Assembly (NCBI RefSeq): GCF_003790525.1
Contig: NZ_CP033635.1
Source: Escherichia coli
Lineage (GTDB): Bacteria > Pseudomonadota > Gammaproteobacteria > Enterobacterales > Enterobacteriaceae
Direction: 5' to 3' (one strand)
DNA length: 64,000 bases
The notes beneath the pieces are model-generated. The model saw only the letters and a program-made list of their open reading frames with translations. It ran no database searches and was not told the DNA's origin. Made by a program: the position numbers and the translations under genes. Of this stretch, positions 60,036-63,314 are shown piece after piece. How positions within the stretch are numbered: position 1 is the first letter of the stretch; each line of letters begins with the position of its first letter.

Positions 60036-60611
60036 GTGCAACGTGAAGATGTACTGGGAGAAGCCCTGAAATTATTAGAATTACAAGGGATTGCCAACAC
60101 CACGCTGGAGATGGTTGCTGAACGTGTGGATTATCCACTGGACGAGCTGCGCCGCTTCTGGCCAGACAAAGAGGCAATCCTCTACGATGCGCTGCGTTAT
60201 CTTAGCCAACAGATAGATGCCTGGCGTCGTCAGCTGATGCTGGACGAAACGCAAACCGCCGAACAAAAGTTGCTGGCACGTTATCAGGCGTTATCGGAGT
60301 GCGTTAAAAACAACCGCTATCCGGGCTGTCTGTTTATCGCTGCCTGTACGTTTTATCCCGATCCTGGCCACCCTATTCATCAACTAGCCGATCAGCAAAA
60401 AAGCGCGGCCTACGATTTCACCCACGAACTGTTAACCACGCTGGAAGTTGACGATCCGGCGATGGTAGCAAAGCAGATGGAACTGGTGCTGGAAGGCTGT
60501 TTAAGCCGAATGCTGGTGAATCGTAGCCAGGCGGATGTCGACACCGCACATCGGCTGGCGGAAGATATCCTGCGCTTCGCCCGCTGCCGCCAGGGTGGCG
60601 CACTGACCTGA
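60036..60611 (+). CDS. yjdC: TetR-family transcriptional regulator YjdC
   Basis: ORF 60012..60611; GTG start at 60036 gives 191 aa (V)[30 protein letters not shown]. Confidence 0.85.
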
Positions 60612-60678
60612 CAGAAACACAGAAAAGAAGCGATTTGCCGCAATCTTAAGCAGTTGAATCGCTTTTACTGAAATTAGG

Positions 60679-60707
60679 TTGACGAGATGTGCAGATTACG
60701 GTTTAAT
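60679..60707 (+). promoter_or_regulatory. pheU promoter
   Basis: TTGACG -35, 17-bp spacer, TTTAAT -10, ending 10 bp before the mature tRNA 5' end. Confidence 0.7.
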
Positions 60708-60717
60708 GCGCCCCGTT

Positions 60718-60793
60718 GCCCGGATAGCTCAGTCGGTAGAGCAGGGGATTGAAAATCCCCGTGTCCTTGGTTCGATTCCGAGTCCGGGCACCA
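60718..60793 (+). tRNA. pheU: tRNA-Phe (anticodon GAA)
   Basis: GCCCGGATAGCTCAGTCGGTAGAGCAGGGGATTGAAAATCCCCGTGTCCTTGGTTCGATTCCGAGTCCGGGCACCA; pheU rather than pheV because of the yjdC/dsbD context. Confidence 0.96.
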
Positions 60794-60868
60794 CTTTCAC
60801 TTCCAGATTCATCTCCCGAACTCCACGAAACTCAAGTATAATCACATCGTTACAAGCAATCTGAACAT

Positions 60869-60899
60869 CCTGAACTCCACCGAACTCTACTGAACTCTC
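60869..60899 (+). repeat. three tandem 10-bp direct repeats (tgaactccac / cgaactctac / tgaactctct) in the integrase leader
   Basis: Read directly; 10-bp periodicity; a fourth copy (gaactccac) at 60818; consensus TATAAT hexamer at 60837..60842. Confidence 0.6.
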
Positions 60900-60969
60900 T
60901 CTCAATCAAGCGTTCATTGGGGGCACCGGTGGGGGCTCATTGTGTTCAGTCAGTTTCAGGAGCCCCCAT

Positions 60970-62154
60970 ATGGCACTTACAGCCAGACAGGTCGAAACAG
61001 CCAGACCTAAAGAAAAAGACTATAAACTCTCTGACGAACGTGGTTTATATCTGCTGGTAAAAACCACGGGTGCCCGCTACTGGCGGCTTAAATACCGGAT
61101 AGCAGGAAAAGAGAAAAAACTGGCCCTCGGCGTCTATCCCGACGTCTCCCTTGCTGAAGCCAGAATCAAACGCGACGATGCCCGAAAAATTATCTCCGAA
61201 GGTGGCGACCCGGGCGAAAAGAAGCGAAAGGAAAAACTCACTCAGAAAATCTCTGCCACCAATACGTTCCATGCCCTTGCTACGGAATGGCATCAGCATA
61301 AATCTTTGTCATGGTCTGAAAGTTACGCCAGAAGCGTACTGGAGGCTCTGGATAAAGATATTTTCCCGTATCTGGGCAAACGAAGCGTTACTGATATCCT
61401 CCCGCTGGAAATGCTGGAAATTCTGCGCCGCATAGAAAAACGTGGCTCGCTGGAAAAACTTCGTAAGGTGCGTCAATACTGTAATCAGATTTTTCGTTAT
61501 GCCATCGCCACCGGACGAGCCACTGTCAATCCGGCATCTGAACTGACCAGTACGCTGGCGGCGCCAAAAGCTGCACATTTCCCCCACCTGAGAGCAGATG
61601 AGCTCCCTGTTTTTCTCCGGAAGCTCGCTGAATATCATGGCAGTCCTGTTACCCGCATGGCGACAAATCTGCTGCTTCTGACAGGCCTCAGAACGATTGA
61701 ACTACGGTCCGCTGAATGGTCAGAAATTGATTTTGATAATGCCCTGTGGACAATCCCTGAAAGCCGCATGAAAATGCGACGTAAACATGTCGTACCACTG
61801 TCACGACAGGCCACTGACATTCTGCTGCAGCTCAAAACTTTCTCCGGACAATACCGGCTGGTTTTCCCGGGACGTTGTGATATCAACAAGCCAATGAGCG
61901 AAGCCAGCATCAATATGGTGCTCAAACGTATCGGTTACGATGGCAGGGCAACCGGTCATGGTTTTCGTCACACCATGAGTACCATTCTGCACGAACAGGG
62001 CTTTAATTCTGCCTGGATTGAAATGCAGTTAGCTCATGTGGATAAAAATTCCATCAGGGGTACCTATAATCATGCCCTGTATCTCGATGGTCGCCGTGAA
62101 ATGATGCAATGGTACGCTGACTACATTGATTCACTTTCCATCCAGGAGAGTTAA
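60970..62154 (+). CDS. P4-type tyrosine integrase (phage/genomic-island integrase)
   Basis: ORF 60940..62154 trimmed to MALTARQVETARPKEKDYKLSDERGLYLLVKTTGARYWRLKYR; C-terminal catalytic region HGFRHT...LAHV...Y; directly 3' of a tRNA gene. Confidence 0.9.
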   Translation: MALTARQVETARPKEKDYKLSDERGLYLLVKTTGARYWRLKYRIAGKEKKLALGVYPDVSLAEARIKRDDARKIISEGGDPGEKKRKEKLTQKISATNTFHALATEWHQHKSLSWSESYARSVLEALDKDIFPYLGKRSVTDILPLEMLEILRRIEKRGSLEKLRKVRQYCNQIFRYAIATGRATVNPASELTSTLAAPKAAHFPHLRADELPVFLRKLAEYHGSPVTRMATNLLLLTGLRTIELRSAEWSEIDFDNALWTIPESRMKMRRKHVVPLSRQATDILLQLKTFSGQYRLVFPGRCDINKPMSEASINMVLKRIGYDGRATGHGFRHTMSTILHEQGFNSAWIEMQLAHVDKNSIRGTYNHALYLDGRREMMQWYADYIDSLSIQES

Positions 62155-62303: not shown

Positions 62304-63314
62304 ATGTCACTTAAGGCGATTGCCACTGCACTCGGAGTTTCTGTCACCACTGTCAGTCGGGCTCTTGGAGGCTATGCAGATGTGTCAGCTTCCACCCGTG
62401 CACGGGTGGAAGCTGAAGCTCGTCGACGCGGTTACCGTCCTAATACTCAGGCAAGAAGACTCAAAACCGGTAAAACCGATGCTGTCGGTCTGGTTTATCC
62501 TGGACGTGATGTGCCATTTAACAGTGGTGTTTTTATGGATATGGTCAGTTGCATCAGCCGGGAACTTGCTCACCATGATATTGACTTACTACTGATAGCT
62601 GATGATGAGCATGCCGATTGCCACAGCTATATGCGGCTTGTTGAAAGTCGCAGGGTTGATGCTCTCATCATTGCACACACTCTGGATGACGATCCCCGTA
62701 TCACACACCTTCATAAAGCAGGTATTCCATTTCTGGCTCTTGGTCGGGTACCATCTGGTCTGCCCTGTGCGTGGTTTGACTTTGATAATCATGCCGGGAC
62801 TGGACAGGCAACCCAGAAACTGATTGCTTTGGGACATAAACGTATTGCATTGTTGAGTGAAGACACTTCACATAGCTATGTTGTTGCAAGACGTCAGGGA
62901 TGGCTTGATGCACTGAATGAGCATGAACTGGAAGATACATGGCTGCGGCTGGTTTCTCCCACACGGCGAGCAGGATATCAGGCCGTGATGGAGTTAATGT
63001 CACTACCGATACCACCAACAGCTATTATTACTGACAATGACCTGAGTGGAGATGGTGCTGCCATGGCACTGCAGTTGAGCGGTCGTCTTTCAGGAAAAGA
63101 TGCGGTATCTCTGGTTGTATATGATGGTTTGCCACAGGACAGTATTATTGAGCTGGATGTGGCTGCAGTTATTCAGTCAACACGAAGCCTCGTTGGTCGC
63201 CAGATTTCCGAGATGATATATCAGATAATTACTGATTCATCATCAAAACCACTACAGGTTGTCTGGAACCCGGTATTTTATCCGGGAAAGACGATTCATC
63301 CTCCTTGCTCCTGA
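62304..63314 (+). CDS. LacI-family transcriptional repressor (RafR-like)
   Basis: 336-aa ORF MSLKAIATALGVSVTTVSRALGGYADVSASTRARVEAEARRRGYRPNTQARRL, N-terminal HTH plus periplasmic-binding-protein-like fold. Confidence 0.85.
   Translation: MSLKAIATALGVSVTTVSRALGGYADVSASTRARVEAEARRRGYRPNTQARRLKTGKTDAVGLVYPGRDVPFNSGVFMDMVSCISRELAHHDIDLLLIADDEHADCHSYMRLVESRRVDALIIAHTLDDDPRITHLHKAGIPFLALGRVPSGLPCAWFDFDNHAGTGQATQKLIALGHKRIALLSEDTSHSYVVARRQGWLDALNEHELEDTWLRLVSPTRRAGYQAVMELMSLPIPPTAIITDNDLSGDGAAMALQLSGRLSGKDAVSLVVYDGLPQDSIIELDVAAVIQSTRSLVGRQISEMIYQIITDSSSKPLQVVWNPVFYPGKTIHPPCS

Follow-up and report, generated by a model that had tools for sequence, protein, structure and literature searches.

The pheU–int locus

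Within the window, by which we mean the whole 64-kb stretch of E. coli DNA analyzed here, a tRNA-Phe(GAA) gene, pheU (60718–60793, + strand; ARAGORN; Rfam tRNA, 68 bits), is followed by int (60970–62154, + strand), which encodes a 394-aa tyrosine integrase of the P4 family. Pfam places an N-terminal arm-DNA-binding domain (Arm-DNA-bind_3, PF13356; 1.7e-26) at residues 3–88 of the product, followed by Phage_int_M (PF22022; residues 100–193) and Phage_integrase (PF00589; residues 207–370), and the protein is 46% identical to KplE1 IntS and 40.6% identical to P4 Int. [quoted passage not shown] The gap between pheU and the int ATG at 60970 is 176 nt long and holds all of the elements listed in the initial annotation of this region, every one of which is present, with coordinates right to within 1 nt.

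The window takes in only 3 kb of the island, whose far end lies beyond it. A LacI-type regulator is found at 62304–63314, as in the island of strain W2-5, where int comes first and is followed by a raffinose-utilization operon. The island is of the raffinose-utilization type found at pheU/pheV. Among complete E. coli genomes, 531 of 5426 have its leader, which sits at pheU or pheV or follows other islands in tandem arrays.

Probable arm-type sites in the int leader

The G and C runs of the leader resolve into three copies of one site. Two direct copies, P'1 (D1; TGGGGGCAC, 60918–60926, + strand) and P'2 (D2; TGGGGGCTC, 60930–60938, + strand), lie 12 nt apart from start to start, and an inverted copy, P'3 (I; GAGCCCCCA, the reverse complement of TGGGGGCTC, 60960–60968, − strand), sits in the spacer between the Shine-Dalgarno sequence and the start codon, ending 1 nt before the ATG. 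Counted from the start codon, the positions are −52 for D1, −40 for D2, and −1 for I. P'2 and P'3 form a perfect 9-nt inverted repeat (60930–60938 with 60960–60968), to whose 3' arm TGGGGGCACC (60918–60927) is an alternative partner with a 90% match. The Shine-Dalgarno sequence, AGGAG (60958–60962), precedes the ATG by 7 nt and shares 3 nt with the 3' arm. This triple of two direct copies and one inverted copy appears in 0 of 100 dinucleotide shuffles of the window leader, and P'1 is invariant in 18 leaders of the Phe clade. That the G-runs at 60918 and 60930 (TGGGGGC) are a single site repeated directly at 12-nt spacing is absent from the initial annotation.

When compared to phage P4, the correspondence is close. 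The P4 genome record (X51522) annotates a 12-bp "attP arm sequence repeat" five times: the P arm has two direct copies, and the P' arm has three, two direct and one inverted, which lie immediately 5' of the int start and across it. The P4 repeats read TTGGGGGCATAA, TTGGGGGCATCT, and, as the reverse complement, ATGTGCCCCCAA, and the triple reads ...cattGGGGGCATAATTGGGGGCATc...atgTGCCCCCAaATG; P'1 of the window is homologous to TTGGGGGCATAA and P'3 to ATGTGCCCCCAA. The TGGGGGC motif, the copy number, the orientation, the 12-nt spacing, and the position relative to the int ATG are all as in the window, the integrases belong to the same family, and in both cases int is directly 3' of a tRNA-derived core. 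P4 differs in its target (tRNA-Leu rather than tRNA-Phe) and in its upstream phased repeats, which are of a GTCC type, whereas those of the window are GAACTC.

The attL of the KplE1 (CPS-53)/Sf6/HK620 group at argW shares the order of elements with the window: core, RDF block, second RDF block, −35, direct arm sites, inverted site or sites, ATG. In KplE1/Sf6, the sequence runs TTGACA...GGGTAAAAa gtGGATAAAAt aaTTTTACCC accggatTTTTACCC ATG, that is, GGGTAAAA, GGATAAAA, and then two copies of TTTTACCC, the second of which abuts the ATG in the position of P'3, to which it is homologous. The TAAA-core sites were defined experimentally as the arm-type P' sites of IntS, with an overlap between P'1 and the −10 (Panis et al. 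2010, PMC2951348). The same study mapped the intS transcription start site (TSS) about 30 nt before the ATG, which by our own count falls inside D2, and found intS to be repressed by IntS and by the excisionase TorI. KplE1 differs from the window in its arm motif (GGGTAAAA rather than TGGGGGC) and in having two inverted copies directly after D2, where the window has a 21-nt spacer. The P' arm of lambda attP (H', P'1–P'3), with the Xis sites, is a further parallel: there, too, a heterobivalent integrase uses arm-type sites, the RDF sites are phased, and IHF bends the DNA between the core and the arm sites (PMC2951348). The lambda integrase is of another subfamily with another arm domain, all three P' sites are direct, and int is not adjacent to attL with a promoter inside the arm.

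Based on the homology with the annotated P4 arm repeats and the KplE1 P' sites, we read the TGGGGGC(Y) copies as putative arm-type integrase sites, which would be bound by the N-terminal Arm-DNA-bind_3 domain; the pairing of each protein with its sites is our inference. The initial annotation had proposed a binding array in this leader, which appears right in kind, with the roles exchanged: the G/C runs would be the integrase sites, and the 10-bp repeats are the likely excisionase sites. Its statement that the arrangement could not be assigned to a described element was mistaken, as this is the arrangement of the P' arm in the attL of P4 and KplE1.

Conservation across the integrase family

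A scan of one genome per species yielded 80 loci whose integrases are 43–81% identical to that of the window and adjoin varied tRNA genes (Phe, Asn, Arg, Thr, SeC, Gly, Ser, Leu, and Ala). In most of these relatives, about 160–177 nt separate the tRNA end from the int ATG. The architecture consists of two direct copies 11–13 nt apart, at about −52 and −40, followed by one to three inverted copies, the last of which ends 0–3 nt before the ATG in most loci. The motif itself changes by clade, with TGGGGGC/GCCCCCA, TGTATAG/CTATACA, TGCGGGCA/TGCCCACA, ACGGTAT/ATACCGT, and GATGGTA/TACCATC as well as GGGTAAAA, and it is identical across all copies within one element. An automatic search with 8-mers, allowing at most one mismatch, recovers the triple in 60 of 82 leaders, compared to 0.6 expected from dinucleotide shuffles.

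Within the core of 41 non-redundant loci, identity is nearly the same for every pair of copies: 302/328 for D1 and D2, 311/328 for D1 and the reverse complement of I, and 303/328 for D2 and the reverse complement of I, with contiguous matching runs of 7.9, 8.3, and 8.0 nt, respectively. Because the identity between D1 and D2 equals the complementarity between the direct and inverted copies, and because the mismatches show no G·U excess, the conserved unit is an 8–9-bp site in several copies rather than a particular helix.

The P arm on the attR side

If the G-runs are DNA sites of the intasome, further copies are predicted in the P arm, and the island of strain W2-5, whose leader is 100% identical to that of the window, carries them. 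There, the attR marked by the tRNA 3'-end copy is ~70 kb away, and TGGGGGCCTC and TGGTGGCCTC, 12 nt apart, begin 77 nt from the attR core on its 5' side, the same distance at which P4 has its P-arm copies. As the W2-5 island is a composite of ~70 kb, this attR could derive from a different, related element. Where the island of the window follows another one, the P arm before it holds a pair of its own at 12-nt spacing, GATGGTACA/GTTGGTACA in one instance and GAGGGTACA twice in a second. In the excised form, the P'-arm copies together with the two direct P-arm copies, 77 nt beyond the core, would build the intasome.

Taken together, the sequence architecture, the homology to P4 and KplE1, the family-wide conservation, and the P-arm copies lead us to regard the 176-nt stretch between pheU and int as very probably the P' arm of attL in a P4-family genomic island.

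Phased repeats upstream of the arm sites

Upstream of P'1, we observe two blocks of 10-nt phased units. Block 1 (60816–60845, + strand) consists of three units, CCGAACTCCA, CGAAACTCAA, and GTATAATCAC, and contains putative RDF and/or IHF sites; block 2 (60860–60909, + strand) consists of five, TCTGAACATC, CTGAACTCCA, CCGAACTCTA, CTGAACTCTC, and TCTCAATCAA, which are putative RDF sites. TRF reports a period of 10 with 2.9 copies at 60870–60898 (score 44), and a related further copy lies at 60814–60833. The extension of the phasing to three units in the first block and five in the second goes beyond the initial annotation. GAACTC has 22 matches on both strands of the 64-kb window, four of which are clustered within 80 nt here. 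The third unit of block 1, GTATAATCAC, holds both TATAAT and the IHF-like AATCACatcgTTA, and the last unit of block 2 (AATCAAG) aligns with the −35 region of P4 Pint.

Conservation follows the same period. In alignment A1, block 1 has conserved TC..A columns 10 nt apart (29/30, 38–40, and 49/50), and block 2 has invariant columns at T83–A86, T93–A96, T103/C104, and T113–A116, such that the TC..A periodicity is kept across genera.

In KplE1, five TorI sites fall into two blocks (I1;2 and I3;4;5), the second consisting of three 10-nt-phased sites that abut the −35 (PMC2951348); in sequence, these are GTTCG, GTTCG, and GATCG, next to TTGACA. Block 1 of the window occupies the position of I1;2, and block 2 that of I3;4;5, while the repeat sequences differ, with GAACTC in the window and GTTCG in KplE1. 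By this analogy of position, the two blocks of (C)YGAACTCYA units are most likely a cooperative binding array for the excisionase (RDF) of the island, of the TorI/Vis/AlpA kind, and the TATAATCAC unit may include an IHF-like site. Two inverted half-copies of the CTGAAC unit, GTTCAG (60944) and TTTCAG (60954), were absent from the initial annotation and lie between P'2 and P'3 (60944–60959, − strand). In the Phe clade, the GTTCA found there does not vary (alignment A1, columns G151–A155), and these half-copies could possibly serve as a further RDF site. No cognate RDF gene is visible in the 3 kb of island within the window; in the W2-5 island, a 78-aa HTH protein scores 20.7 bits against the TIGR01764 excisionase model, below the cutoff of 28.8.

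The TATAAT box and the int promoter

A perfect TATAAT is located at 60837–60842. The initial annotation had taken it as a −10 element, and the hexamer is indeed there, but it has no −35 partner: a scan of 60600–61100 for sigma-70 promoters with two hexamers and for intrinsic terminators returned neither. In P4, the int −10 (CATAAT) is the D1–D2 spacer (X05947; Pierson & Kahn 1987) and the −35 is TTGAAA, whereas the equivalent positions of the window read CACCGG and TCTCAA. The E. coli variants of this spacer are CCCCGG, CACCGA, and CACCTG, and we find no int −10 inside the D1–D2 region of the window. KplE1, for its part, has a clear TTGACA/TAAAAA promoter with a mapped TSS, and a promoter of the P4/KplE1 type is not recognizable in the window. 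Canonical −10 and −35 hexamers near the conserved GTGTTCAAT, which lies between D2 and I, were also considered and were rejected by eye for poor spacing and poor hexamers.

One possibility, which we hold only tentatively and consider on the whole doubtful, is that the TATAAT at 60837–60842 has become the int −10 in this clade, replacing the lost P4-type promoter and giving a leader of ~120 nt with all three arm sites. The hexamer is a perfect consensus, a similar box is kept in 13 of the 18 Phe-clade leaders and is recognizable in other clades, and the D1–D2 spacer of this clade offers no −10 of its own. However, the best candidate for a −35 is TCCCGA, which matches at 2 of 6 positions, and the box also occurs in P4 (TTAAAAT) and KplE1 (GAATAT), whose promoters lie downstream of it. 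The box is furthermore in 10-nt phase with the two preceding units and coincides with a match to the IHF-like pattern WATCAR-N4-TTR. The phasing and this match mean that the conservation of TATAAT is explicable by intasome protein binding, and the box is more likely an element of that kind than the int promoter. Primers reported for PAI I536 (PMC7286903) were considered for placing its IHF site relative to TATAAT and were uninformative, as that island has a different leader type with an insertion of ~130 nt.

The binding of Int, and of the RDF, would repress int through sites that overlie the int promoter and leader. Such repression is expected because the arm and RDF sites occupy these positions, as shown for P4 and KplE1. 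Negative autoregulation was demonstrated for KplE1 IntS and predicted for tRNA-then-int arrangements generally (PMC2951348); it has been reported for P4 Int, KplE1 IntS, other tRNA-adjacent integrases, and IntI of PAI I536 (PMC2951348; PMC7286903). As the canonical −10 is missing from the D1–D2 spacer, the repression step is uncertain in the lineage of the window, where autorepression by promoter occlusion may not apply; we infer this regulatory consequence from the leader sequence. The missing −10 in such a widespread type of E. coli island hints that the integrase is poorly expressed, which would bear on the stability of the island.

Pairing in the leader RNA

The initial annotation had also proposed that, in the leader RNA, GGGGGCUC (60931–60938) pairs with GAGCCCCC (60960–60967) and hides the Shine-Dalgarno region, with the first G-run competing for the same strand, so that the structure gates int translation. 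The isolated hairpin is stable (−18.4 kcal/mol), D2:I pairing is present in both the MFE and the centroid structure of an 86-nt fold, and most relatives, too, have the inverted copy directly before the start codon. In addition, PMC2951348 cites reports that P4 int is controlled post-transcriptionally and that Vis binds RNA. We nevertheless find such gating improbable, given a weak fold z-score, the lack of covariation and of G·U bias, and the loss of the hairpin in longer transcripts.

The initial annotation had suggested folding and covariation analysis as ways to examine this proposal. The folding energies lie within the range of shuffled sequences: the 86-nt fold (60900–60985) has a z-score of −1.52, with 15/200 shuffles as good, and a 143-nt fold (60848–60990) has a z-score of −2.14, with 7/200 as good. 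In the 143-nt fold, the partners of the G-runs are the CU-rich repeats farther upstream, and for the same reason the CCCCC spacer is 97% unpaired in transcripts that begin at the tRNA end. Among the 18 Phe-clade leaders, the core pairs are invariant and two outer pairs break without compensation; the D2:I covariation of 0.078 in this clade is not above that of shuffles, 470/500 of which are as high. Pairing of D1 with I is at least equal to that of D2 with I (93.8% versus 91.4% paired). Across clades, the complementarity between direct and inverted copies ends at the same ~8 nt as the identity between D1 and D2, and the core mismatches between them in the 41 loci are mostly transversions, with 1–4 of the G·U type versus 3–9 of the A·C type. 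An excess of T>C in the flanks is explained by the T-rich spacer facing the purine-rich Shine-Dalgarno sequence. In an Rfam scan of 60600–61100 (E ≤ 1), nothing but the tRNA matched. The P-arm copies of the motif are of no use to an int leader and cannot belong to the hairpin. Finally, the mapped TSS of KplE1 lies inside D2, so its native mRNA lacks the 5' arm.

The arm sites could conceivably double as an RNA fold-back insulator against outside transcripts, such as read-through from the strongly expressed tRNA gene, and keep int untranslated; we offer this unlikely idea as speculation rather than as something to which the data point. The native int transcript of P4 and KplE1 begins inside D2, whereas one that enters from outside would include both direct copies, which could pair back with the inverted site abutting the start codon; in the Enterobacterales leaders, the tRNA gene has no terminator before int. 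If true, int would be nearly silent in the lineage of the window, where the internal −10 has been lost. IS10 offers a parallel: according to work ascribed to Davis, Simons, and Kleckner in 1985, fold-back reportedly inhibits translation of its transposase from read-through transcripts. The likeness lies in the 5' arm of the hairpin, which in P4 and KplE1 is upstream of the native TSS, such that only outside transcripts would sequester the start; the difference is that we see no sign of selection on RNA pairing here, and the comparison is one of analogy only.

That the repeats and the inverted repeat reflect chance or the composition of an A/C-rich intergenic region, a reading favored only by the shortness of each element, has a negligible probability and is refuted by the shuffle counts given above, both for the window leader and for its relatives, and by the cross-genus alignment, in which the core columns are invariant.

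Implications for P4-family islands

One real difference of the window from P4 and KplE1 is its D1–D2 spacer, CACCGG, which has no −10 box. Our reading of the locus leaves the current understanding of site-specific recombination unchanged. For annotation, it means that the 176-nt spacer between pheU/pheV and int is better described as an attL with P'1–P'3 and putative RDF sites than as a "structured leader." For P4-family islands as a group, it suggests a rule in which direct sites 12 nt apart lie at about −52 and −40, an inverted site lies at the ATG, and the motif is specific to the clade. This rule could help to find arm sites and, where islands stand in tandem, to assign an orphan attR end to the integrase it belongs with.

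Spacing and transcriptional context of the leader

[quoted passage not shown] A clear terminator, consisting of a hairpin and a T-run, lies directly 3′ of the tRNA or core in distant relatives (loci L055, L069, L070, L072-L074 and L078), and likewise at the second integrase of strain W2-5 (L090 8790-8830). The Enterobacterales leaders, including that of the window, have no such terminator after the tRNA or core, and it is thus possible that transcription from the tRNA gene runs into int in these leaders.

Variation in the arm sites and leader

Among the Phe-clade leaders, the pheU copy of E. coli 142 (L095) provides one natural variant of the inverted arm site, which reads GCCTCCA rather than GCCCCCA at alignment column 172. 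In several strains, the second direct site, D2, is TGGGGGCCC in place of TGGGGGCTC, with no corresponding change in the inverted copy. Within the 200 nt upstream of int, the PAI I536-like group (L021-L028, L034, L038 and L080) carries a cluster of two direct sites and one inverted site, tgggggtacattagggggtg...gcaccccca, and 3′ of this cluster a vestigial ATG opens an ORF of 4 codons; the start codon that int now has comes only after ~130 extra nt. Primers MC124 and MC125 (PMC7286903) match this insertion in sequence, and it therefore contains the published IHF site of PAI I536 (PMC7286903).

Genomic settings of the integrase

Beside int in the window is a LacI-family regulator (62304-63314) of a raffinose-type operon that continues beyond this gene; the operon, also found at L087 21511-29102, encodes this regulator, an alpha-galactosidase, an MFS transporter, a GH32 hydrolase and a porin. 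Elsewhere this int has different cargo: some strains carry genes for a TPR protein and a phosphoethanolamine transferase immediately after it, and IS1 marks the junction. E. coli F11 has a copy of the leader and int (78% identity; L002 2982-3160) directly 3′ of ynjA, where the tRNA gene is absent and the core position is occupied by ttcttaaggagggtacta, which bears only a loose resemblance to the tRNA-Phe 3′ end (about 11/18, counted by eye). This copy looks like a secondary-site integration.

Islands are also arrayed in tandem at pheU/pheV (L001 11800-12180; L093 40-430; L090 8600-9140), and in these arrays the window-type int and leader often come after the preceding island, whose closing boundary is a degenerate copy of the tRNA 3′ end. 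The P arm of each preceding island has its own direct pair with 12-nt spacing, GATGGTACA, GAGGGTACA or TGGGGGCCTC, and the arm motifs could therefore serve for pairing attR ends with their cognate integrases in such arrays.
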